Source: an uncultured archaeon (GTDB lineage: Archaea > Asgardarchaeota > Thorarchaeia > Thorarchaeales > Thorarchaeaceae). Taken from it: 35,411 nucleotides of DNA. The notes under the pieces were generated by a model. It ran no database searches. It saw only the letters and a program-made list of their open reading frames with translations, and was not told the origin of the DNA. Position numbers and translations under genes: made by a program. This document shows positions 14 to 35,411 of this stretch, piece after piece (the stretch's first letter is position 1; each line of letters begins with the position of its first letter). The stretch is from the NCBI GenBank assembly GCA_964631415.1, contig CAZVZC010000020.1:1-35411 (forward strand), written 5' to 3'.

Positions 14-2749
14 TTGGGTGACGCTGTGCTACTGAACCTTTCTGATAACTCCGAAACCAGGCTTGGGTTCTCAGGTCATCACGAATACGAGTACAACCAT
101 CGCACGAACACAGTATTCACATTCGAGTCCTACTTCGCCACAGCTAACGGGTCCGTATACGTCTATGACATGATTCGTGAGTTCAACCTGACAGGGTATT
201 GCGTCTGGTCATTCGACACTCAGACACTTGTCCCGCCCGGCAGATGGCATCCTCGCGACATGTTTGACACAACATGGCCTCTCTACGATGTGACTCACTC
301 GAACACGATATTCTTCGACAGCGATGAAGACATCATCTACTACAACTCACGCAACCTGAGTACATTCTACAAGATCAACCATACGGATAGTCGAGTGATC
401 TGGGGACTGGGCGAGTATGGCAACTTCACGCTCTACAATCGTTGGGGCGATGAACGCGACACTCTCTTCTATCATGCTCACTCAGTCGAGAGAGTTGACG
501 ACAACACTTTCATCATCTTCGATAACGGCCCGTTCAATCAGACCGACCATGCGAATGAGCGCTCTCGCATTGTGGAGATCACAGTGAATGAAACGGCCAT
601 GACTGCGTACGAGTCATGGTCTTGGGCTGCGCCCCGTGAGTACTACAGCGTCATATGGGGGGACGCAGACAGGCTGCCCAATGGCAACCGTTTAGGGGTG
701 TTCGGGACACATAGCCACCCCGATTGTGACATCGGAGCCCGGATTGTGGAGGTCAATCCTGAAGGTAAAATCGTCTGGGAACTGAACTTCCCACACTCTC
801 AGGATTTCACCTATGGCATCTATCGAGCTGAACGATTTCGTTACAGCCCAATAGTATCTGCTGAATCTGAGAACATCAGGGCCGTGACGCATGAGAACTT
901 GAGTGTTGCCTGGAATCTCTGGTACAACTATCGTCCCAAGCATACCGTCACTGGGAGCTATACTGTGTACCTCAACGGGATTCCCGTAGAGAACGGGACC
1001 TGCGCCTATGACAGGTTCTGGCGAGCAGAGCGCCTCTTGTCCGTTCTGGGCGAGCTGGAAATCGGCAACTACAATGTGACTCTGGAGATTTCTGACGAAG
1101 ACGGACATACTACGACCAGCAGCGTAAGTGTTTTCGTGAGCAACTTCTACATCGATCGCGAAGGTCCCCTGTCGTTTGAGATAGGACAGGAGAAACACAC
1201 GATTCTCTGGTCCGGAGAAACAAGTGGTCCTTTGGACTGTAACATCACGGTCGATGCTGCTCTCCATGATTCTCTTGTGTGGACCGGTTCCAACATTAGC
1301 GTTGACTTGTTGACACTAGGGGTTGGTAATCACAGTGTTTGTCTGAAACTGTTCAATGGAACCGATCTTGTGTATGAAGACGGCATGATGGTCGCCGTCT
1401 ACCCCTCGGAGGAGCCGGTGTTTCTCTTTATGCCGCCCGTCACCCCGCTCCGTTGGAACACAACGACGGTGGTTTCCTGGACTTTCACGGACAAGTCCCC
1501 AGCCACTTGGCACCTCTACATCAACTCCTCCGCGGAGAAGTGTGGCACTTGGAACTGCACAACATACACCCTCAACTGGAAGGTGCCCACAGAGGCTCTG
1601 TACAACCTCACATTGGACGTCTTTGATTCAGCTGGGCATGTCGCACGATGCTCTTCATGGCTCGTAGTGCTTCCGCCGAGTCCACCCATCTTTACTTCGA
1701 CTCCTGGCAACCGCACAGTGACATGGGGAGCCGAGGGCGTCACTTTCACATGGGAAGTGCATGGTGGCAGCTCTTGGAGCGTATGGAGAAACGGCACAGT
1801 GATTCTAGAGGACGAGCTGCATGGAGACTTAGTCAGCGTGGCCGTAGCTGATTGGAGGACCTATGGATGGCGGCCCGGTCTGTACAACCTGACCTTGCTT
1901 GTTGTCGACAGCAACTCCTCTGCCAGAAGCACTGTCTGGATTGGCGTGACTGTCGACTTGGGTGATCCATATGCAGATTTGAATATCAAGGCAGAATCAC
2001 TATGGGTTTCGTTTCCTGAGAATGCTCTCGGACCTCCGGATGGACAGTCTGCGAGGATCTTTGTGGACTATGGAAACGGATACCTGACTCTAGACATGGG
2101 TGCAAGTGAAGAGATTGTCGACGGTCAAGGGAACGACCTGAATGTGATTGCAGGAGGCGGCACATACGCCGTTCTCGCAAGCAGTAGTCTGAGCGAGCTG
2201 TTCGTTCCATTGGGCGCCGGTAGCGGTAGTCAGAGCTTTGATCTAGCTGCTGCCGGCATTGAGATGGCTCGTTACGTCCGAATCGAATATGTGTCCGGCG
2301 AATTCGTGATGCTCGATGCGATCGTCGCACTGAACTACAATAGGCCAGCTCAAGACACTGAGCGTCCACAGGTCTACGGCCCCGAGGACTTCTGGATTTG
2401 GGAGAACCAGACCGATGCGACTCTGACGTGGATTGCTTCCGATGCAACACCATGGAGTTACAGCATACTCATCAATGGCAGCCGCGCTAGCTCAGGCAAT
2501 TGGAATGGCTCTGACATTGTGTTTGTGTTCATGCCCCAAGGCCTCGGGACATGGAATGTGACTCTTCTCCTAACTGATGCCTTTGACAACTGTGTTCAAG
2601 ACACTGTTTTCGTTGAAGTGCGATCTTATGCAACCACGACGACACTCACTGTCAATGCATACGTCCTCATAGCAGTGTCAGCATGCGTCTTGGGCGTCTG
2701 TGTGGCTCTTGTTTACATAGTGGCTCAATACCATCGCCGGATTGGTTAG
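14..2749 (+). CDS. Arylsulfotransferase (ASST)-like beta-propeller surface protein with Ig-like repeats and C-terminal membrane anchor; probably 5'-truncated by the window edge
   Basis: DVTHSN, FYHAHS, FDNG and GDADRLPNGN motifs typical of ASST-like propellers. Repeated beta-sandwich units (G.YN.TL...D..G), many N-x-S/T sequons, C-terminal TM followed by HRR. No signal peptide at the called start. Confidence 0.75.
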   Translation: MGDAVLLNLSDNSETRLGFSGHHEYEYNHRTNTVFTFESYFATANGSVYVYDMIREFNLTGYCVWSFDTQTLVPPGRWHPRDMFDTTWPLYDVTHSNTIFFDSDEDIIYYNSRNLSTFYKINHTDSRVIWGLGEYGNFTLYNRWGDERDTLFYHAHSVERVDDNTFIIFDNGPFNQTDHANERSRIVEITVNETAMTAYESWSWAAPREYYSVIWGDADRLPNGNRLGVFGTHSHPDCDIGARIVEVNPEGKIVWELNFPHSQDFTYGIYRAERFRYSPIVSAESENIRAVTHENLSVAWNLWYNYRPKHTVTGSYTVYLNGIPVENGTCAYDRFWRAERLLSVLGELEIGNYNVTLEISDEDGHTTTSSVSVFVSNFYIDREGPLSFEIGQEKHTILWSGETSGPLDCNITVDAALHDSLVWTGSNISVDLLTLGVGNHSVCLKLFNGTDLVYEDGMMVAVYPSEEPVFLFMPPVTPLRWNTTTVVSWTFTDKSPATWHLYINSSAEKCGTWNCTTYTLNWKVPTEALYNLTLDVFDSAGHVARCSSWLVVLPPSPPIFTSTPGNRTVTWGAEGVTFTWEVHGGSSWSVWRNGTVILEDELHGDLVSVAVADWRTYGWRPGLYNLTLLVVDSNSSARSTVWIGVTVDLGDPYADLNIKAESLWVSFPENALGPPDGQSARIFVDYGNGYLTLDMGASEEIVDGQGNDLNVIAGGGTYAVLASSSLSELFVPLGAGSGSQSFDLAAAGIEMARYVRIEYVSGEFVMLDAIVALNYNRPAQDTERPQVYGPEDFWIWENQTDATLTWIASDATPWSYSILINGSRASSGNWNGSDIVFVFMPQGLGTWNVTLLLTDAFDNCVQDTVFVEVRSYATTTTLTVNAYVLIAVSACVLGVCVALVYIVAQYHRRIG

Positions 2750-2790: not shown

Positions 2791-4350
2791 TCACTTCCTT
2801 CTTTTCAGAGCTAAGGCAATCACCAGAATCGCTGCGACTCCTATGACTAGACTGCCAACGATGATCGGGTCCAATGCCCTGCTAGTCCCAACAGAGAAGA
2901 AAGCAGTGACAAATGATGCCATTTCTGCTGCGTACACATAGACCGTGTAGTTGCCGTCTTGCAATGTCCGTGAAACCGTGACGGTCCATGTCTGGTTTTC
3001 AGCATCTACCCAGTTGCCTGTCGAGTTGCTGTAGATCCTATACGCAAGACCAGTGAACTCAGACCCCTCCGCCGGTCTGTACCACAGCTCGATGGGAATG
3101 GAACTGCTCTCATAGACATGACCGGCTATGGGAGAAACAACATCAACAGCGTGTTCGGCGTAGTTCGGAATGTAGTCAATGTCGAATATGGCACCGGCAG
3201 GCCCTTTCCATACTGTGGCGTCGATCTCCCAGATGGTGCTCCCATTCGGGGCCACTTCCCACACCCAGCTATTGACGGAGTCAAGAAGAAGAGTATTTCC
3301 GTTGGGCAACCTATCTGAATCCTGTAGCTTGGAGCTGTTGAACTTGTGCTCTGTCACGCTGTATTCCCACACGATTTCCTTCGTGCTACTGTTTATCTCA
3401 AAAGCACGCCAATTGCTGCTGTCGGAAACTATGAGGTTCCCGTTTCTTAGCATCACTGGATCGTGCTGATAGTAGGGTATGGACCCTCCCCACTCCCAAT
3501 CGATCTTGCCGGACGCATTGATCCAGGCATGCTCTGGGCCAAAGAGCCAAACAGGCATACCAGTGGGGTCAACAATCACTGTCATGTTCAAGTGGCGGAG
3601 GTTGATCATTGTGTTTCCATTGGGCAGACGGTCCGCGTCATTGATGTGCGTCCATCTAGCTTCTTGACCGCTACTCGGTGTATCTTGATATATCTCCCAC
3701 TGAGTCCAGTTCGGATACCTTATCCACTCCCGTGGATTCCAGTCCCATACAATCTGGCCCTCCGAATTCACTTCTATGACTCTACCATCGGAGCCGTTAC
3801 CTTCAGCTGAGCCCATTGCGTTTGCCACGAGTGTGTTGCCGTTCGGCAATCGTTCCACATCATGAGGCCATTGCATGTCAGAGTCAGACACATATGACCA
3901 CACGAGGTTGTTCTCTCCATCAAGTTCGACTATGCATCCGGGACGCACTGGATAGACAAACGCCCCGGTGGTCGTGTTCCATATTCCTGCTGCGCAGCCG
4001 GGACGCTTGTTGTATCCGACCTGCAGTAGGAAGTGACCATTGGAAAGGTATTCGACAGAGAACACACCACAGTCCGCCAAGGGATACTTCCAGTCTGGTA
4101 TGCCGCCTGGGATTCTCTTAATGCTCACATTGAGGAACTCGTGTCCCGTGGAGTTGATGATCACTGCGCCGTTGATCTTCGGCGCGTTTAGGACAAAGCA
4201 TCCTGCATACTCTTTCACTTCTAATGCGGCAGATGGACGAGTGGTGTGAAGCTTCACCATCCCCTGTGCCACAGGCTGATACAGAGAAAGAACGAGCGCA
4301 AGAACAGCAATCAGTATGAATGTCCTCGAGTTCAAATGTGACAACCTCAA
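2791..4350 (-). CDS. Arylsulfotransferase (ASST)-like secreted, membrane-anchored protein
   Basis: N-terminal hydrophobic signal. Repeats HDVERLPNGN, HINDADRLPNGN, QHDP..L.NGN and QDSDRLPNGN. C-terminal TM followed by KRRK. Confidence 0.75.
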   Translation of the reverse strand: MRLSHLNSRTFILIAVLALVLSLYQPVAQGMVKLHTTRPSAALEVKEYAGCFVLNAPKINGAVIINSTGHEFLNVSIKRIPGGIPDWKYPLADCGVFSVEYLSNGHFLLQVGYNKRPGCAAGIWNTTTGAFVYPVRPGCIVELDGENNLVWSYVSDSDMQWPHDVERLPNGNTLVANAMGSAEGNGSDGRVIEVNSEGQIVWDWNPREWIRYPNWTQWEIYQDTPSSGQEARWTHINDADRLPNGNTMINLRHLNMTVIVDPTGMPVWLFGPEHAWINASGKIDWEWGGSIPYYQHDPVMLRNGNLIVSDSSNWRAFEINSSTKEIVWEYSVTEHKFNSSKLQDSDRLPNGNTLLLDSVNSWVWEVAPNGSTIWEIDATVWKGPAGAIFDIDYIPNYAEHAVDVVSPIAGHVYESSSIPIELWYRPAEGSEFTGLAYRIYSNSTGNWVDAENQTWTVTVSRTLQDGNYTVYVYAAEMASFVTAFFSVGTSRALDPIIVGSLVIGVAAILVIALALKRRK

Positions 4351-23934: not shown

Positions 23935-25875
23935 ATGACACTGAAAGGCGAGAATGCAGCTGAACTCGCTAAGATCTTCGGTAACCGGCTCGTCACTGCC
24001 AAACATGAGCTGATTGTCCACTCAATGGACGTGGGGTCACTACCGAAGCAGGTCGGCTGGCTAATGAACACAAACCCCGACGCAATGGTGCAGCCAGAGT
24101 CGGCAGAAGAAGTCCAATCGTTGTACGACTTCGCCCGTTCTCACAGAATTCCCGTGGTTCCTCGAGGGGCAGGGACATCAGGCTACGGGGGTGCCATACC
24201 ACGGAAGGGTGGTATCGTTGTCGACATGCGCAGGATGGATCGGGTCCTGAGTGTCGACAAGGAATCGATGACTGCCGTGGTGGAACCGGGCATTTCATGG
24301 GCAAACCTGCAGCTAGAGCTGAACCGTCAGGGCCTTGATCTTAGATGCTATCCTTCGTCAGCAGTGTCCGCGACCATTGGAGGCTGGGTGGCGCAGGGCG
24401 GCGATGGTATTGGCTCGCTCAAGTACGGCAACATCAATGACAACGTGGTTGAACTCGAAGTTGTTCTACCCGACGGGAAGACAGTCGTGACTAGAGACAC
24501 GGATCTGTTCTGTGACACAGAGGGGATTTTGGGCATAATCACAAAGGTCACACTCAAGGTCAAACCTCTGGTTCCAGTTCGCTCCATTGTTGTGAGCTTT
24601 CCCGAGAACTACCTGATGGTCTTCGCGATTGAGAGGATAATGAAGGATGGACCCCTGCCGTTCACCATGAGATTCGAAGAGAGCAAGTACACAGACCTCA
24701 AGAAGAAGATCTGGGAGGGCAAGGCGCCCTTCCCGTTTCCTGTGCATCACTGCGTTCTGTTGATCGCCTACGAGGGGACAGATGAAGAGATTGCTAACGG
24801 ATTCGACGTAGTCAAAGAAGTGTGTGAGGAACTGAAGGGGACTGTCTACGATGAAGGCGTCGCACTCCATGAGTGGGAAGACAGGTTCTATCCCATGAGG
24901 ATAAAGAAGATTGGCCCCACACTCGTTGTTGGACAGGCATTCGCCCCGATAGAGAACCTAGAGGCCGTTCTAGACGACTTCCAGTTTGAACAAGCTTCGG
25001 CTCATGCGGGAATCGACGGTTACGTGACATCGAAGAATGGTGTCACAATGATGGGCTACTTCCTTGAGGACGAGCGGCGTCATTTCTTCATGCTGTCTTG
25101 GTCGCAGAGTTTTGTGATCTTCAAGATTGCACAACGCCACGGAGGGCACCCTCATTCGACAGGGATCTGGCTGGCGAACTACGCACCGATATACTTCGGC
25201 ACACGTCGCCTTGGCAGGATCAGAGCCGCCAAGCTGAAACTGGACCCGCTTGAGATCTCCAACCCGGGCAAGGTGTTTGCGTACTGGCTTCCACTGATAC
25301 TCAGAATCGGCAAATACTTCATGTGGCTGGGATTCGATCTGTTCAGGAATGGATTCGGTAGGATTGCGCCTATTCTCCTAAGGTGGCTCCAGAACCTCCC
25401 ACCGATAAAGTGGCTTCTTCGCTGGGGTCGTGCCCACAGCCCTTGGCCGGTCCAGTACGGTCTCGGGTGTTGCATGGTCGATGGTGCAGCCGCGGTCGCA
25501 TCTCGCTGGGACCTTGAGAGGTTCGGCATGCTTCCACTATTTGGTCCCCGGCAGTGTGATGTGCTGTGGGTATCGGGTTCCCTGACAAAGAAGATGGCTC
25601 CTCGTCTGCGGAGGATCTATGAGCAGATGCCTGACCCCAAGTTCGTCATATCATTCGGACAGTGTGCTGCAAGCGGAGGTCTCTTCTGGGATGGATACTC
25701 GCTCGTTACTCCTCCTGACAAGGTGGTGCCAATCGATGTGTATCTACCAGGTTGTCCTCCGAAGCCTTCAGACTTTGTCAGGGCACACCTGATTCTTCAG
25801 AACAAGATTCGTGCAGGGACAACCCACTGGCAGCTGAAACATGAGAATCAAGATGCGATGGGCGTGATAAAGTAG
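23935..25875 (+). CDS. FAD-linked oxidase/dehydrogenase (GlcD-like) fused to a C-terminal NuoB-like Fe-S domain
   Basis: VPRGAGTS..GG, VEPG, ATIGG, TEG.LGIIT and K..LDP...NPGK, followed in frame by GLGCC, PRQ.D....G..TKKMAP.LRR.YEQMP.PK.VI..G.CA..GG and DVYLPGCPP. Confidence 0.9.
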   Translation: MTLKGENAAELAKIFGNRLVTAKHELIVHSMDVGSLPKQVGWLMNTNPDAMVQPESAEEVQSLYDFARSHRIPVVPRGAGTSGYGGAIPRKGGIVVDMRRMDRVLSVDKESMTAVVEPGISWANLQLELNRQGLDLRCYPSSAVSATIGGWVAQGGDGIGSLKYGNINDNVVELEVVLPDGKTVVTRDTDLFCDTEGILGIITKVTLKVKPLVPVRSIVVSFPENYLMVFAIERIMKDGPLPFTMRFEESKYTDLKKKIWEGKAPFPFPVHHCVLLIAYEGTDEEIANGFDVVKEVCEELKGTVYDEGVALHEWEDRFYPMRIKKIGPTLVVGQAFAPIENLEAVLDDFQFEQASAHAGIDGYVTSKNGVTMMGYFLEDERRHFFMLSWSQSFVIFKIAQRHGGHPHSTGIWLANYAPIYFGTRRLGRIRAAKLKLDPLEISNPGKVFAYWLPLILRIGKYFMWLGFDLFRNGFGRIAPILLRWLQNLPPIKWLLRWGRAHSPWPVQYGLGCCMVDGAAAVASRWDLERFGMLPLFGPRQCDVLWVSGSLTKKMAPRLRRIYEQMPDPKFVISFGQCAASGGLFWDGYSLVTPPDKVVPIDVYLPGCPPKPSDFVRAHLILQNKIRAGTTHWQLKHENQDAMGVIK

Positions 25876-29101: not shown

Positions 29102-29482
29102 CTAGGGCTCGTTGAGCCATCCGACGGAAGCCACCACAAGGAGGACACCGAAGGCAATCCAAAGGAAGACTAGACCACCAAGATAGCCTGCGTAAAGTGT
29201 GACATCTAGATAACCCTGGATTCCTCCAAGTATGCCGGAAATGAATGTGAGCGCCATGCGCCTTGGACGGGTTCCTGCGTATGCCACGGCCGCTGTCGCT
29301 AGTACAAAGAGACTGCAGTCCACGAGAAGGAGTGGGCGGAGAAATGGCTCTGCGACAGAACTCATCGTCCACAACATGTACAGGAGAATCAGAGCCAGTC
29401 CGATAGCGAGCACGGAGTAGTAGACTAGAACGATTTTTGTCTTGGGCGCCAAGCGAATCACCTGAGGTCTGGCCTCGGACAT
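29102..29482 (-). CDS. Small 4-TM membrane protein of unknown function
   Basis: ATG start and four hydrophobic segments. Lies just downstream of the cassette array. Confidence 0.65.
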   Translation of the reverse strand: MSEARPQVIRLAPKTKIVLVYYSVLAIGLALILLYMLWTMSSVAEPFLRPLLLVDCSLFVLATAAVAYAGTRPRRMALTFISGILGGIQGYLDVTLYAGYLGGLVFLWIAFGVLLVVASVGWLNEP

Positions 29483-29556
29483 CCGGGAGAAACCGTCGTA
29501 GTGCTCTATTTAACTGCTTTGAGGAATGGGGCTCTGACTTCCAGTGACACCGGCTT

Positions 29557-29690
29557 CCGTGCCATCGACCGGGGTGGCATCTTCCGGCAAAGGCGCAGTC
29601 GGGTCACGCTTTGACAGGTCAGCGACTACACTGTTGTCGTGGACCCAAATGTCCACAAAACGGTAGCAGACAGCCACACGCTTCAAGGTG
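29557..29690 (-). pseudogene. Cassette conserved module, copy A (degenerate, no C-terminal domain)
   Basis: Reads YRFVDIWVHDNSVVADLSKRDPTAPLPED..PVDGT, homologous to copies B-D. The frame stops at 29510. Confidence 0.8.
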
Positions 29691-29699
29691 GTGGGGCAA

Positions 29700-29915
29700 T
29701 CAGGAGTCGGGTCGGTGCTCTTCCAGTGTTCTCTTTCCCTCCATGGCAGACAACTCACATTTCAGACCACCAGTTGGGTCAGGGCTCACACTGAGCGCCC
29801 TGAGGATGGCGAAAAGCGAAACGAACAACATCACGGGGACGGGCTGGTCGGAGAAGCCGAGGAGCTCTTCAGACCAGAGGATTCCCAAAGCAAGAAGCGG
29901 CAAGCCGAAGAACAT
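29700..29915 (-). pseudogene. Fragment of a small membrane partner-like gene
   Basis: Two hydrophobic segments, same strand as the array, positioned between a partner gene and module A. Confidence 0.35.
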
Positions 29916-29939
29916 GAGGAGTGACTCGAAGCATCGCGG

Positions 29940-30347
29940 CTAAGGCCCTTTGTTGTCTGTTGGACGGTCTTGCGGTTCATGTACCAGCTCATACTCTTTC
30001 GGTGGGCTCTGAGAAACCTTTCGATGAGTCGCCATGACTCCTGCAAGGGCGGTCAGTAGCATCCCGACTGAGACCCCGACCAACAGGACAACGAAGTCCA
30101 AGTGTGGAAATGCGCCCGCCCATCTAGCAGTAGCCAAAAGGACAAGAAAGCACACTACCCCAACGCTGCACCCTAAGCCAGAGAACCACAGAACCAACGA
30201 TTGTTCTTTGTCCGTCATCTTGCTCCATGGCTTTTTCCGTGTGCCAATCGCCTCGTAGACCAGTAAGTAACTCGAGAGGACTGAAAGTGACCATGACGCA
30301 ACCATAAGCAGCAACGAGAGCACCAGAGGATTCATCACTTCTTGCAC
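29940..30347 (-). CDS. Orphan 3-TM partner (putative immunity) protein
   Basis: GTG start with AGGTGA upstream. TM, basic loop, TM, TM, tail layout like the other partners. Confidence 0.65.
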   Translation of the reverse strand: MQEVMNPLVLSLLLMVASWSLSVLSSYLLVYEAIGTRKKPWSKMTDKEQSLVLWFSGLGCSVGVVCFLVLLATARWAGAFPHLDFVVLLVGVSVGMLLTALAGVMATHRKVSQSPPKEYELVHEPQDRPTDNKGP

Positions 30348-30491
30348 TGGGTTTCACCTTCCAATCGTCATGCCTTCTCTGTTGGTAGTTGCGGATCCGC
30401 GAGAGGGGATCATGTCGACGCCCTCCAATAAGACACACCGAAGAGCGCGGTTATTCTTAGTGTCACCGGCAGAAGTCCAACCGTTCTCTTT

Positions 30492-30872
30492 TCACCCCTG
30501 CTGCAACTCTTTATCCATCTCCAGAAGCACCTTGCGGACTTTGTGCTTCATGGGGATCCCGGCGATACTTACAATCAGGATAAGAGCAGTGGCTACCACT
30601 GGCGTGAAAGGAGAGGAATACCCCACGGCAATCTCGGTCAAGGGTGGCAGAATGTAGGTCCCCCAAATGGTGTATGCAACGATAGCGTTAGGAAGTAGGA
30701 CCATCATATCGAGAAGGAAGTCGCCCAGTCGAGTGTTGGCTGAATATGACTTGACTAGCCACCTCCTACGTCCTATATGCCACAGCATCGCTGCATGCGC
30801 TATCTCTCCAACTAGAAGTACGGATCCAGCCGATAAGAGCGCGAGGACCACTGCAAAGGCGAAGACCAACAT
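30492..30872 (-). CDS. 3-TM partner (putative immunity) protein of cassette B
   Basis: ATG at 30872, one nt after the cassette B stop. 126 aa with three hydrophobic segments. Confidence 0.65.
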   Translation of the reverse strand: MLVFAFAVVLALLSAGSVLLVGEIAHAAMLWHIGRRRWLVKSYSANTRLGDFLLDMMVLLPNAIVAYTIWGTYILPPLTEIAVGYSSPFTPVVATALILIVSIAGIPMKHKVRKVLLEMDKELQQG

Positions 30873-30873
30873 A

Positions 30874-31911
30874 CTAGAACACTCCGACGCGGCATTGAGC
30901 CGCGAATGACAGCAACAACAGCCCCGTGACCAGTAGCACGATTCTGATTGCCAGAGAACCAATAACGGTCGCTTGGGCCATTTCCCAAATGAACCAGATT
31001 GCTGGCGGGAAGACAAGGCTCACCACCACGGCTCCAAGCCATGCCAGCGCAGGAAGACCGAACAGGGTGCCGAGGCATCCCATTCCCAGAAGGAAGTAAA
31101 CCCACGCCGCCCACCCGAGTCCCTTCGCTCCCGACGCCAACCACGCGTCCACAGATATCCTGAGCGACACTATTGCACAGACCCACATAGCTACAGCGAA
31201 GGCTCCTGCGCCGCTTATGAAACCGAGGCCAGCAGTCCCTTCAATGAATCTTATCGCGAGAAGACATGCCGCGAGGAAGCTAGTGAAGAGAATGAAGGGT
31301 GCCAGCTCCTCAAGAGCCTCTCCCCAGAACTCTCGGTCGTCATCATCGGTCCATTCAGACCCCGTGTCAAACTGCAGGACAGTGACCTGATCGAGTAGGT
31401 CTCTCTTCCCATGGAAAGATGGTTCGACTTCCGGATGCTGACAATCTGGCGGTCGTTCTCTGACAAAGTGAAGCTCCGGCCACGGTCCGGTCCAGTAGAG
31501 TTGCAGTTCCGCGTTCACCTTGTCTAGGTCCGTCTGGAACGTCGCTTCGGGCTCAGGAGTTGCAGTTCCCTTAATCGTCCCATCGTAGTCCACGGGCTCG
31601 TCAGTGTCAGGCGCAGTGGGGTCATGCCTTGACAAGTCAGCGACCACGTTGATGTCATGGACGCGCACGTCGACCAGCGTGTATGAGGAGGCCCTCTGGC
31701 CGAGAGTGACCACGTACTTGATGACGCGTGAGGAGTTGTTGACCTCTGCTATGGGATAGCCGCTGCCGGACCCATCGATGCTCGAGTATATGGCGCCATC
31801 GCCTCCCTGCCACGGGTCCCACCAGACCTTCGCAGTCTTCTGGAAGGACGTGTAGATGTAGCCTGACGACTGAGAGTAGGGCGCGCCACGACACGTGGTT
31901 TCTGACCCCAA
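30874..31911 (-). CDS. Cassette B: conserved module plus variable multi-TM C-terminal domain (probably a 5'-truncated orphan)
   Basis: EVNNSSRVIKYVVTLGQR..SY.LVDVRVHDINVVADLSRHDPTAPD, then GPWPELH and about 5 TM helices. Only a TTG start, no signal peptide. Confidence 0.7.
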   Translation of the reverse strand: MGSETTCRGAPYSQSSGYIYTSFQKTAKVWWDPWQGGDGAIYSSIDGSGSGYPIAEVNNSSRVIKYVVTLGQRASSYTLVDVRVHDINVVADLSRHDPTAPDTDEPVDYDGTIKGTATPEPEATFQTDLDKVNAELQLYWTGPWPELHFVRERPPDCQHPEVEPSFHGKRDLLDQVTVLQFDTGSEWTDDDDREFWGEALEELAPFILFTSFLAACLLAIRFIEGTAGLGFISGAGAFAVAMWVCAIVSLRISVDAWLASGAKGLGWAAWVYFLLGMGCLGTLFGLPALAWLGAVVVSLVFPPAIWFIWEMAQATVIGSLAIRIVLLVTGLLLLSFAAQCRVGVF

Positions 31912-31933
31912 ACGGCCACCTTTGCGGCTTCTG

Positions 31934-32494
31934 TCATTCCTTGCGTTCTTGTCCTGGCTCTAGCCGTTTCAGGGCGTCCCTGAACGCTTGCCCAATCTCG
32001 TCATCGCGGGACAGAAGCCTCTGTTTTGCATGCATGTATTCTTTAACCATTACGTCATCGGGATCCAACTTCCTCATTTCTCCCAGGAGCGTTGAAAGCA
32101 GCCCATCCAGATGCCCGTTTCTGTAATTCTGTTCAATCGTGAGTTCTAACATCTGTTCTAACATCTCGCCGGGCTCCACATCCTTTCTTGCTGTTGCTTT
32201 GAATCGCTGCCCTATCAGCACGTAAGTGAATGCAGGTGCAGACATCAGAATGACTAGCACCACACCAACCTCAGGATGCGCCGCTTGAACCCACAACACA
32301 GGAAGAACCCAGAAAAGAAGCACCAGGAGCATGGCTTCGTATGCGGCAATGGCCCTTCGACGCGTACCGAAGACTCTGTGTCCTACGTTGCGCAGAGTGG
32401 ACGGCCCCCTGTTTCGAGAAGTCAGCAAATCTACGAATGCGAAGAACAAGACTATGCCACAACTCGCAATTGCCGCTAATCCGAATGTATCCAC
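31934..32494 (-). CDS. 3-TM plus helical-tail partner (putative immunity) protein of cassette C
   Basis: GTG start with AGGAGG overlapping the cassette C stop. C-terminal LLSRDDEIGQAFRDAL motif. Confidence 0.75.
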   Translation of the reverse strand: MDTFGLAAIASCGIVLFFAFVDLLTSRNRGPSTLRNVGHRVFGTRRRAIAAYEAMLLVLLFWVLPVLWVQAAHPEVGVVLVILMSAPAFTYVLIGQRFKATARKDVEPGEMLEQMLELTIEQNYRNGHLDGLLSTLLGEMRKLDPDDVMVKEYMHAKQRLLSRDDEIGQAFRDALKRLEPGQERKE

Positions 32495-32507
32495 GATTCA
32501 GGGCCTC

Positions 32508-33420
32508 CTAGGTGCTCCAACCCATAGCAAGGTAGTATCCAACATACCATGCGCAGGTCAACATGACGGCCATCTTGATAAAGGCCACTGCAAAGAACCA
32601 GATGCCTCTGTTGAATCCAGCTGGGGCTATCGGGAAGGGCTTACAGGCTTTGTAGAGCCTGTACATGAGCCAGCCCGCCGCAAGATCAGGACCTACGCCC
32701 GGGAATAGTAGCATAATCAGACTCAGGAAAGCGGCGGCCGCACCGTATGGATGCATCACATTGTTTTCCACTGCCCATTGGATAAATGCCACATACACTA
32801 AGAACAGGACGGTCCATGCGCCCAACATCGCCAAGAGGACCCAAATGCTGGTAAGCATAGCAAGCGGACTGGCAAGATTCTCGATTAGCATCAGCCCATA
32901 CTTCAATGCGAAAGCCAAACCCACTGGCGCCACGAATTTAACTAGGAACTCGGCCCACCCACTGTCCATCTGTTGAGCCACTGCGCCCATCTCTTCTTCT
33001 GTACCCTCGGCCTCTATGCTTGACGCAATCGACAAAGTATGCACCTGTATGTCTCCCAGGATATCGACCGAGATCAGCACATTGAATACGGTCTCGATCA
33101 CGTCAACGAGTTCTAGGAACAAGCGGGGCCAGAAGTTCACTAGAGCCCAGAATGCCTCTAGGGAAACACTCAGCAAGCTGAGCGTCTGTTCTCCCTCTTC
33201 CTGACCACACTCAGGAGTGGGAGCGGTTCCATCGTTCTCCTCCGGGTCCGGTGCTGTCGGGTTGTGCCTTGTCAAGTCAGCGACGACGTTGATGTCATGG
33301 ATGCGCATGTCGACCAGCGAATACGAGTTGGACCTCTGTCCGACTGTGACCACGTACTTGATCACGCGGGAGCAGTTGTTGACCTAGATGATTGGGCATG
33401 AACCTATAGACCTGTCAATG
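32508..33420 (-). pseudogene. Cassette C: truncated conserved module plus variable multi-TM domain (open frame 32508-33385)
   Basis: 33251-33385 matches 31611-31745 at 114/135 nt by manual count. Upstream homology continues through an in-frame TAG (IDRSIGSCPII*VNN versus IDGSGSGYPIAEVNN in B). Confidence 0.75.
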
Positions 33421-33442
33421 AGGGGTCAACCTTTTCTGTGGG

Positions 33443-33870
33443 CTATGCCTCTATTCCGAGCTCCTCGATCTTCGCCCTTGCAGCACTTCCAAAGTCATCT
33501 GTGCGGCGCGCCATCAGAACCAAGAAGATCTTGCGGTCGCCAGGAGGGCAGCCATGACTGGGGTCCCGTATGTAGCTTACAATATAGTCTATGCCTTCAG
33601 CCGGACTACGACCCCCCATTGCCTCGACGTATCCGGCAATGTGCTCCTCAGGGCCCGGAGCAGAGGAGAACCTTTCTCTGTTGAGATACACTGCCGCCTT
33701 AAGGACGGCAAGATCACTGATGAGTGTCACCAACAGAATCATCGAGTAAGAATCACCCCGACCATCATCAGACCCTAGACTGATGTGATGAGGATTAATG
33801 TGGCGGAGTAGCAGAGAAGGTTCAATATGTGGCTTTCGAATACATGATGAGCAAACTGGTGTGCCAGCAG
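33443..33870 (-). pseudogene. Decayed orphan partner gene (intact part 33443-33742)
   Basis: C-terminus LMARRTDDFGSAARAKI shares the partner motif. The upstream hydrophobic frame (ILNLLCYSATLILITSV*GLMMVGVILTR*) has a stop and a frameshift. Confidence 0.6.
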
Positions 33871-34021
33871 TCAGCCCATCGCATCCTCTGCAACCTCCAG
33901 GTAAGCGATAGCAGCCAGCATTGGGATTCTTGGTGCCAACGCGCTCATTCCGGTCATATACTCACCAGAAACATTCGTCCTGAATACAGCCAGCCCGCCG
34001 ATAGAAGAGCTCTGTATATAA

Positions 34022-34546
34022 CTAGTCCTTCTGCTCGTAGTGGAGTGCCTTTCTGACGAAGTCCCCTAGCGAGTCCTGACGCAGTATCAGTGCATCCAAA
34101 GCGGCTCTAGCGTCCGGCTCAACTGCGGCTTCCTGAGTTAGCGCATCGATAGCGTGTTTCAGTTTGGCAGTGTTTCCTCTAGCGAATTGATAGTCGATGT
34201 GGGAAGTATAGAAGCCGGGGCCTTCGAGTCGCACTGAAGACCGGCGGTCCCTTGCCACGATCTCTCCAACCACCCCAACGGCTCCTCCGAATCCCGTCAA
34301 TAGAACAAAGGCGAGCCCAGATGCCTCTGCAATTCCGAAGTACATCACACAAGAGAACAAAGCGTACAAGTATGCGAGAACGAAGACCATGCATGTCCGG
34401 ACTCGTCCCTTGAAAATCTCGCCGCTGACCCTGGATAAAACCGAATTCTCTCGCCGTCCAAGGTGAATGCCGTCCAGCACCACAAGTAGAACGTACAGCA
34501 GTATCGATGTAATGAGGTTCAAGAGGTAGAGCATGCTGGTCACCAT
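34022..34546 (-). CDS. 3-TM plus helical-tail partner (putative immunity) protein of cassette D
   Basis: ATG at 34546 overlaps the cassette D stop (ATGGTGA). C-terminal LILRQDSLGDFVRKAL motif. Confidence 0.75.
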   Translation of the reverse strand: MVTSMLYLLNLITSILLYVLLVVLDGIHLGRRENSVLSRVSGEIFKGRVRTCMVFVLAYLYALFSCVMYFGIAEASGLAFVLLTGFGGAVGVVGEIVARDRRSSVRLEGPGFYTSHIDYQFARGNTAKLKHAIDALTQEAAVEPDARAALDALILRQDSLGDFVRKALHYEQKD

Positions 34547-35411
34547 CCATAAAGTTGTACGTGAAGCCAAGCGTAATGTAACGCCAAGTAGATGCATGTA
34601 ATGGAAGCCGAAACCTTCACGGCAATCGTGACTATGGTATAGAGGACTTGCAGCAATCTGATTTGCTTCCAGTGGGGATGGGTGGTTATCAGGTACTTCT
34701 GATACCACTCCTTACCTTGTTTCCATTGAGCGGATAGGCCACTACCCATGAAGTTCATAAAGCTGAGCCCCATAACGCAGAAACCTGCGGCAGCAGCTCC
34801 TGGGGACATCAGTTCCATGTCCACAGCACAGACCACGGCATACACCCAACAAGCGAATAACACTGCCCACGCGACATAGAGGGCTGTCATTGCCGCAATC
34901 CACGCGGGTATTGGCACCAACCCGGCAATATCAAGCAAAACGAGGGACACTCGCAGACTCAATGCAAACACACCTAGCTGACCACCCCACACCCTAAGAA
35001 GCTCATCCCACAACCCAGCACTGGCGGTCTGAATGAGCTCAATGGGGACACCATTTTCGAATGGCAAGAGCATACTTAGTGTTTCGAGAACTACATATTG
35101 AAGGATATCAATCGCGATTGTAAAACTGGCCACGCAGTCTTCTACATGCAGTACGGCCGGAATATGAAGCACGGGCCAGGGTCCGGTCGAATATGGCTGT
35201 TGAGCTGTTGCGCCTGCGTCGAGGCCACTATCGGCTGCCAGTCTGCTCTGGGGTTTCAGGAATCTCACAGACAACGCCTCAAGCTCGCCCTTATCCGTCC
35301 CATCGCACTCCACAGGCTCGTCGGGGTCAGGCGCCGTGGGGTCATGCCTTGCCAGATCAGCGACCACGTTGATGTCATGGATGCGCATGTCCACGAGCGA
35401 GTACGAAGAGT
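34540..35411 (-). CDS. Cassette D or 3' end of the full-length parent gene: conserved module plus variable multi-TM domain; frame open at the window edge
   Basis: SSYSLVDMRIHDINVVADLARHDPTAPDPDEPVECDGT, GPWPVLH and about 4 TM helices. No upstream stop within the window. Confidence 0.75.
   Translation of the reverse strand, partial: SSYSLVDMRIHDINVVADLARHDPTAPDPDEPVECDGTDKGELEALSVRFLKPQSRLAADSGLDAGATAQQPYSTGPWPVLHIPAVLHVEDCVASFTIAIDILQYVVLETLSMLLPFENGVPIELIQTASAGLWDELLRVWGGQLGVFALSLRVSLVLLDIAGLVPIPAWIAAMTALYVAWAVLFACWVYAVVCAVDMELMSPGAAAAGFCVMGLSFMNFMGSGLSAQWKQGKEWYQKYLITTHPHWKQIRLLQVLYTIVTIAVKVSASITCIYLALHYAWLHVQLYGW

Follow-up and report, generated by a model that had tools for sequence, protein, structure and literature searches.

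Organisation of the cassette array

The stretch of DNA analysed here (the window) is an entire contig of 35,411 nucleotides (nt), C20, which belongs to a genome (G000) of 2.16 Mb with a completeness of 85%. Proteins near-identical to products of this contig carry the source name "Candidatus Thorarchaeota archaeon", in agreement with the Asgard origin that an earlier note, made from the sequence of the window, had assigned to it. At one end of the contig a tandem array was found, all genes of which lie on the minus strand. It contains four copies (A to D) of a conserved module, which is the last part of a lectin-like domain described below together with a linker (DPTAP..DGT). Copies B, C and D are continued by a hydrophobic C-terminal tail and followed by a small gene, here called the partner, whose product has about three transmembrane (TM) segments. 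Related genomes possess long genes, termed parents, that end in the same module and a tail. The locus has a polymorphic-toxin-like architecture and exchanges its cassettes through the module, which acts as a homology arm; on both points our confidence is high. The features of the array are listed in the direction of transcription, and profile positions refer to a search profile built from 14 family members.

34540..35409, minus strand: copy D, comprising the 3' part of the module (SSYSLVDMRIHDINVVADLARHDPTAP), linker and variable tail (profile positions 73-356)
34022..34546, minus strand: partner of D, 174 amino acids (aa), 3 TM segments and a cytoplasmic helical tail ending ..RQDSLGDFVRKAL
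33443..33742 (stop-to-stop frame 33446-33961), minus strand: spacer open reading frame (ORF) of 99 aa between the D unit and C
33384..33470, minus strand: decayed lectin-domain remnant upstream of C with in-frame stops (three-frame translation; the profile match spans one TAG)
32508..33383, minus strand: copy C, a 5'-truncated cassette with the module from VNNCSRVIKYVV, linker and variable tail (profile positions 55-342)
31934..32494, minus strand: partner of C, 186 aa, 3 TM segments and a helical tail ..SRDDEIGQAFRDAL, with an ortholog in the related genome G002
30874..31911, minus strand: copy B, about half a lectin domain (from SSGYIYTSF), module, linker and variable tail
30492..30872, minus strand: partner of B, 126 aa, 3 TM segments
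29940..30347, minus strand: orphan partner gene, 135 aa, 3 TM segments, no tail upstream
29510..29758, minus strand: copy A, degenerate module and linker remnant, tail-less, at the downstream end of the array
29102..29482, minus strand: flanking 3-TM gene p126, 126 aa
next after p126: convergent ABC transporter

A repeat search revealed one family of four direct 123-nt copies of the module (A 29550-29672, B 31568-31690, C 33208-33330, D 35288-35410), of which A, C and D are 62%, 72% and 85% identical, respectively, to B as reference. B and C additionally form a longer repeat pair of 149 nt with 83% identity (31597-31745 and 33237-33385). The four same-strand copies and their cores, as described in the earlier note, were recovered by this search, and the identity of 114 of 135 nt that it had reported for B and C is in line with the 83% determined here. 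Most changes between these two copies are indeed synonymous (pS 0.38 versus pN 0.10 in the core, dN/dS 0.21). When all paralog pairs were compared, dN/dS of the module ranged from 0.04 to 0.58 at dS values of 0.24 to 1.1.

The tails of B, C and D are hydrophobic, comprise approximately four helices each and are 30-35% identical at the protein level, while the modules show 62-85% identity at the nucleotide level. The earlier note had rightly recognised them as divergent hydrophobic C-termini; that they are unrelated domains was rejected on the basis of this identity and of two motifs, WP.LH and DLLG, which are common to the tails. In the family alignment a conserved N-terminal part is followed by the linker DPTAP..DGT, the two motifs and the divergent hydrophobic helices, and a single profile spans nearly the full tail of almost all copies (profile end positions 280-360). 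Judged from these alignments, the tails are one divergent, fast-evolving homologous family. Searches of Pfam and NCBIfam yielded no significant family for the module, the tails or the partners.

Each of the three tails is closely linked to its partner gene. The TAG stop codon of C is located inside a GGAGG, which lies 8 nt before the GTG of the partner at 32494. The stop of D overlaps the partner start as ATGGTGA (ATG at 34546), and in B the TAG is separated by 1 nt from the partner ATG at 30872. Translational coupling of B, C and D to small 3-TM genes, another assertion of the earlier note, was thereby substantiated for partners of 126, 186 and 174 aa, respectively. The originally called partner ORFs of 228 aa and 174 aa were replaced, the true partner starts being 34546 and 30872. 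As to the cassettes themselves, the view that B and C lack a convincing start or signal peptide applies to C, which has a GTG start without Shine-Dalgarno (SD) sequence, and only in part to B, which is devoid of a signal peptide but has AGGTGG in front of a TTG start. Upstream of C lies a decayed domain with in-frame stops (IDRSIGSCPII*VNNCSRVIKYVV), and these stops just upstream favour silence of this copy. Among the copies compared, an SD-like motif accompanies the chosen start of 21 of 40 partners. Any SD-led start within the first 45 codons was found in 9 of 37 cassettes versus 12 of 36 internal control windows, so that such starts are not enriched in the cassettes.

B and C are stored units, A is the decayed end of the array and D is probably a stored unit as well. 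The window comprises the contig in full and gives no view of a parent gene beyond its end; D, whose 5' end is cut there, could represent either a spare unit or the terminal part of a parent. The 99-aa spacer ORF, without a match in Pfam, has a homolog (E 2e-17) on the opposite strand within the array of the related genome G003 and is probably outside the core parts of the locus. The 126-aa 3-TM gene at 29102-29482 was considered as a partner of A and rejected, as the homolog of this gene is found apart from the array in G003 and all four matching sequencing runs cover the gene; it is probably a conserved flanking gene.

Two further copies, E and F, are located on a second contig of G000 (C67). 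Copy F has a signal-peptide-like N-terminus, which is common to G000 and G002 up to about IKYVV. In copy E (C67:2111-3487; L003:762-2135, minus strand) a membrane-anchor leader (MKPLLHRKPQGMIGALLFLSAIIVFSLLVY..) is in frame with a lectin remnant and a tail. Leader and tail are separated by one in-frame TAG (..VNLVIYE*IALLIM..), which may reflect a recent nonsense mutation, an error of sequencing or read-through.

Parent genes and the fold of the module

The earlier note had suggested a search of Asgard genomes with a profile of the module. Within the same taxonomic family, 12 of 25 genomes (G000 included) were positive, as opposed to none of 16 genomes outside. A wider scan yielded 29 of 85 genomes of this one Asgard family and none of 314 from the other families of the phylum. 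The locus is specific to one family of Thorarchaeota. In several genera, many of the matches terminate open frames of 1,040-2,120 aa that begin with an N-terminal signal or anchor; a Sec-type N-terminus on these parents was noted by eye. Downstream of the parents and on the same strand, shorter matches follow that begin at profile positions 30-105. The long secreted gene ending in the module, which the earlier note had expected, thus exists in relatives, whereas none was recovered in G000. In G002, which belongs to the same genus, a signal-anchor protein of 1,061 aa is followed by a 137-aa partner, a 134-aa gene, the ortholog of C (P0004, with a longer arm than in the window), a 183-aa partner, another copy, a 141-aa gene, a further copy, a 229-aa partner and an N-terminal fragment resembling that of F. 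The array of G010 even comprises about ten units, the frames of which open at varied points of the module.

In the parents, a conserved domain at the N-terminus is accompanied by beta-rich regions and by concanavalin-A-like lectin domains, two or three in number, and the protein ends in the linker, which is rich in Pro and Asp, a small sheet and the four-helix tail. A translationally coupled small 3-TM partner gene comes next. Pfam detected only DUF2341, fn3 and Glce_b_sandwich in five parents, one of which has two stretches of fn3, an Ig-like fold. Domains of the RHS, haemagglutinin, LXG or Hint type were not found by Pfam in these five proteins, as had already been remarked in the earlier note for the window, and no search of the genomes for a secretion or delivery apparatus was made. 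The N-terminal domain contains invariant ..VIYVSHGGP.G.. and ..HLFAAC.S.. motifs after hydrophobic strands (e.g. L026:12804-15986, residues ~40-160). An Atlas search with this domain gave unnamed clusters and a weak lead to CHAT (0.88). Because this lead is weak, the idea that the domain may be a caspase- or CHAT-like processing peptidase is founded on the SHGG and FAAC motifs.

The fold of the carrier was deduced from an AlphaFold2 (AF2) model covering the C-terminal 407 aa of the parent from G002 (pLDDT 85). A beta-sandwich (residues 1-175, pLDDT >95) is followed in it by the linker, which is disordered, by a sheet of four strands and by four long helices; the module corresponds to the last two long strands of the sandwich (IIKYVV.. 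and ..LVDMRIHD..). Foldseek searches with the sandwich returned 108 matches in the PDB at E<=1e-3, among them galectins, GH16 glucanases, PL7 lyases and calreticulin. The top match was the galectin 4agr (TM-score 0.63, normalised to the target), while a PDB sequence search with the G002 parent returned nothing. In view of these matches, the module-bearing domain of the model is a concanavalin-A-like jelly roll, an assignment at the level of the fold, with sugar binding being only putative. Truncated copies retain the last two to five of more than ten jelly-roll strands, and therefore copies starting at IKYVV or later are predicted to be unable to fold the lectin domain alone. Consistent with this prediction, the partial lectin domain of copy B is poorly defined in its AF2 model (pLDDT 74), in which sheet and helices are confident. 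With the model of copy B, Foldseek returned nothing at E<=1e-3. Comparison with all representatives by VIA-align gave only generic helical bundles (best Z 10.9), which is below the informative level for helices. Neither Pfam and NCBIfam nor Foldseek and VIA-align detected a known toxin fold or family for the tails.

A library of 1.84 billion proteins contained 258 clusters matching the profile at E<=0.001. Of the 150 clusters listed, at least 10 are 719 aa or longer and about 25 were called from the methionine of VDMRIHD. Clusters P0065, P0068, P0071, P0076 and some 20 more begin at the methionine of LVDMRIHD (profile position 80) or at MIKYVV. Gene calls that start at a module-internal methionine are probably artefacts, produced where gene callers meet a 5'-truncated cassette. 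This is also of practical importance, as many public entries of the family start in this way and would have to be regarded as gene-calling artefacts on orphan cassettes.

Evidence for cassette exchange and its possible function

Exchange is indicated by the comparison of parents. Their identity amounts to 45-85% as far as the module and drops to 7-35% thereafter, and the switch occurs at a boundary motif reading ..IKYVV..VDMRIHDINVVADL..DPTAP..DGT. Together with the finding that an alternative tail and its partner are stored elsewhere, this corroborates a point that the earlier note had put up for testing, namely that the same carrier body bears different C-termini in different genomes. Two such cases were detected. 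In the first, the tail that ends the G374 parent has its match in G360, in a stored cassette located on another contig (normalised score 0.81; 134 of 189 residues of the partners identical), and the parents of the two genomes are 60-85% identical up to the arm. Likewise, the tail of the G002 parent and its 137-aa partner match a 5'-truncated, parent-less cassette of G003 and its 143-aa partner. Orthologs of the orphan partner at 29940-30347 follow the G002 parent tail and the matching G003 cassette, so that by analogy this gene, which has no tail in the window, would behave like an orphan immunity gene.

G000 and G002 share 1.8 kb with approximately 90% identity, which extends from the 3' edge of the B module through the 186-aa partner and C and ends at VNNCSRV. 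The breakpoints of this homology are the module edges, beyond which other tail/partner pairs are located; the tail and partner of B have no counterpart in G002, where another pair occupies the site. A fixed order across strains was not seen: cassette order and content vary between genomes, with breakpoints at module edges. In G022, the parent and a downstream cassette share an arm of 373 nt with 85% identity, including a 100-nt stretch of 94-98% identity, up to the 3' edge of the module.

Recombination was also visible in environmental contigs, i.e. Logan assemblies aligned to the window, with none of the runs containing more than 0.17 of the sampled words. A contig of 1,696 nt from run X2 (freshwater sediment) joins position 29642 to 33332, and 31 letters between them complete the module in register. 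The recombinant is a junction of module A with module C by which 3.7 kb were deleted, and its product reads ..VNNCSRVIKYVVTVGQRYSTYSLVDMRNHDNSVVADL.. before it continues into the short end of A. In run X6, which stems from another study, the identical letters form a loose end at 33332. One contig from a wetland spans only C and its partner, between two modules, and contigs from runs X2 and X6 end at approximately 35283-35290, within the D module, like the window itself. The two parent/stored swaps and the in-register recombinant bear out the suggestion of the earlier note that stored pairs of C-terminus and partner recombine via a short arm.

Tail and partner also vary together. Their similarities correlated across 37 units (Pearson 0.86, a value reached in 0 of 2000 permutations), and the ten most similar partner pairs were also among the most similar tail pairs. 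Since kin share both genes, the correlation demonstrates that tail and partner move as a unit, but not that they co-evolve functionally. Moreover, 39 of 48 cassettes are followed by an ORF with two to four TM segments, which mostly starts no more than about 40 nt from the stop of the cassette. Homogenisation of the arms by gene conversion was rejected on account of the dS values between arms (0.24-1.1), and an assembly artefact because the same architecture occurs in many independent genomes and runs.

Taken together, we favour, with a probability of roughly 55%, the reading that the array belongs to a surface locus with a swappable tail, in which a membrane-active effector is held in check by a neutralising partner. 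The lectin body of the parent would bind the glycan coat of a neighbouring cell, and the N-terminal domain with its invariant SHGG and FAAC might process the protein as a caspase-like peptidase. The tail would be a membrane-active effector or an identity determinant. Lodged in a membrane, it would be bound and thereby neutralised by the cognate partner, similar to toxin/immunity pairs in conflicts between neighbouring cells. Recombination in the arm, as shown by the comparisons above, deletes or replaces units, with the consequence that parents with similar bodies before the arm differ in their tail/partner pairs and that a pair expressed in one genome is stored in another. The chances that the system has an antagonistic toxin/immunity function, which is suggested by analogy, are in our estimation somewhat below even.

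Several observations weigh against the favoured reading. The tails, which lack an informative structural match in Foldseek and VIA-align, are one homologous family of membrane helices and not a collection of diverse toxin folds, which would fit a determinant of specificity or recognition equally well. A Sec substrate that ends in four hydrophobic helices should lodge them in the membrane of the producer, so that export to another cell is hard to picture. The range of dN/dS in the module and the dS values between copies reveal constraint at the protein level and arms that are not homogenised, and some short copies may therefore be translated genes, which is in accordance with the AGGTGG before the TTG start of B. 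This constraint would be explained by cycling of the cassettes through the expressed position, or equally by translation of some of the short forms. Among the sequencing runs matching the window there was no RNA run. Finally, tblastn with the parents of five relatives did not detect an N-terminal part of a parent in G000, though this is no proof of absence in a genome that is only 85% complete.

Recognition of kin without killing might be accomplished with the same components if tail and partner formed a cognate membrane complex signalling kinship of a neighbour that touches or fuses, and the stored cassettes diversified identity; IdsD/IdsE of Proteus and the TraA-dependent membrane exchange of Myxococcus would be the nearest parallels. 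A single fast-diverging tail family matched to co-varying partners is what would be expected of specificity determinants, the tail is predicted to be embedded in the membrane of the producer and a lectin-like body suits contact at the cell surface. On the other hand, the tail-less partner gene at 29940-30347 has been kept, which is a habit of immunity genes and of no clear use in pure recognition. Nor does a single fold speak against toxins, as single-fold toxin/immunity families such as the colicin/immunity pairs are known. We regard kin recognition without killing as the main rival, though a rather unlikely explanation. Slightly less probable still is a membrane-embedded self/non-self system in which contact between lectin and glycan would be followed by sharing or fusion of membranes and by exchange of the four-helix tails, whereupon a neighbour without the cognate partner would be depolarised or rejected.

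Purifying selection on the module in all copies, the SD-like motif and TTG start of B, the signal-peptide-like N-terminus of F and the stops in several copies (upstream of C, the TAG in E) could be accounted for by an ordinary expanding family of membrane-anchored lectin-like proteins, whose short copies are genes or pseudogenes and whose rearrangements are incidental to unequal crossing-over; the X2 recombinant, being a deletion and not a swap into a parent, would agree with it. However, copies reduced to the last strands of the jelly roll are predicted not to fold the domain, their truncation points cluster at the arm across many genomes, and start signals are present on the partners, not on the cassettes. 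In addition, parents diverge sharply right after the arm, and a given tail/partner pair is found at the end of a parent in one genome and as a stored unit in another. An ordinary paralog family is thus improbable. It is even harder to believe that the parent, as a receptor or adhesin, has its end altered by exchange of cassettes in order to escape viruses or predators, in the manner of the antigenic variation of pilE/pilS and vlsE. The locus does combine an expressed gene, silent partial copies and recombination arms, and the body of the parent is surface-exposed and lectin-like. But it is this exposed body that is conserved, while the variable part consists mostly of membrane helices and a small membrane-proximal sheet. 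Each variant moreover brings along a co-varying membrane partner gene, which antigenic variation does not need, and we consider this explanation highly improbable.

Whether the tail of the favoured swappable-tail locus acts as a toxin or as an identity tag affects its significance. In the former case the locus would represent a polymorphic toxin system of archaea whose effector acts on membranes and has a fold that found no match here, in the latter an allorecognition system in archaea. The dealings of Asgard archaea with their neighbours are almost unknown, even though contact, protrusions and membrane interplay are central to ideas on eukaryogenesis. The locus offers concrete parts for their study, namely a lectin-like surface carrier, a membrane tail that can be exchanged, the small membrane partner cognate to it and an arm for recombination, and its ongoing rearrangement is visible in natural sediment and wetland populations.

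Some other genes in the window and next to the arrays of relatives deserve mention. A 646-aa frame (23935-25875, plus strand) encodes an FAD-linked oxidase (FAD_binding_4 and FAD-oxidase_C) fused to a NuoB-like Oxidored_q6 domain. In G003, the FAD-oxidase and Oxidored_q6 parts are separate overlapping frames, which adjoin the array. The other end of the contig is occupied by two large arylsulfotransferase-like (ASST) proteins arranged tail to tail (14-2749, plus strand; 2791-4350, minus strand). Nucleotidyltransferase-like genes, identified by eye from translations, adjoin arrays in G003 (L035:3927-4741) and G022 (L027:4366-4749). In G003 the nucleotidyltransferase-like gene has a possible HEPN-like neighbour, also seen by eye, an arrangement as in conflict and defence islands.

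Comparison with known systems

IdsD/IdsE of Proteus mirabilis and the TraA/SitA exchange of Myxococcus xanthus (the latter also in PMC6880969) are contact-dependent systems of identity or toxicity. They resemble the array in that these traits are determined by variable membrane-associated proteins with cognate partners, which would act after contact or sharing of membranes. There is no homology to the proteins of the array, and the two systems rely on a type VI secretion system or on outer-membrane exchange. They also do not have arrays of truncated cassettes bearing lectin-domain arms.

Within the archaea, the closest parallel is provided by the VARTIG modules of Thermococcales, for which the authors found no counterpart outside this order (Makarova et al. 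2021, PMC8416519). Both are lineage-specific, and in both recombination has made the C-terminal region of a large surface protein hypervariable and the variable downstream genes include membrane proteins tied to particular variants (PMC8416519). The VARTIG loci likewise combine a polymorphic-toxin layout with the lack of a recognisable toxin, and the same three kinds of hypotheses were considered for them (PMC8416519). They have no sequence relationship to the Thorarchaeota locus, though, and are composed of Ig domains with a variable C-terminal Ig domain (PMC8416519), whereas the locus described here has a concanavalin-A-like lectin body and a variable helix bundle.

A full-text literature search, which did not cover a 2019 mBio survey of archaeal polymorphic toxins, gave no description of the family in the texts found. 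The layout of the locus fits the polymorphic-toxin type in the structural features that were examined, apart from the single family of tails, and the protein families on which it is built would be undescribed. Bacterial systems of this type with arrays of orphan C-terminus/immunity pairs are CdiA-CT/CdiI, Rhs-CT/RhsI and MafB/MafI (Zhang et al. 2012, as cited in PMC6393860). What they have in common with the Thorarchaeota locus is a long secreted carrier with a conserved boundary motif before a hypervariable C-terminus (here deduced from the parents of relatives), a cognate small gene directly downstream of the C-terminus, and tandem 5'-truncated spare pairs of C-terminus and partner with a homology arm. 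Lone partner genes kept without a C-terminus and a cassette content and order that vary between strains complete the resemblance. By contrast, the host of the array is an archaeon with a single membrane and is not known to offer a T5SS, T6SS or T7SS context. Its carrier is made up of concanavalin-A-like lectin domains, and Pfam detected none of the RHS/YD, haemagglutinin, LXG or Hint type in the five parents. Furthermore, the C-termini of CdiA, Rhs and MafB are diverse enzymes, while those of the Thorarchaeota cassettes all belong to one four-helix membrane family, and their partners are polytopic membrane proteins.

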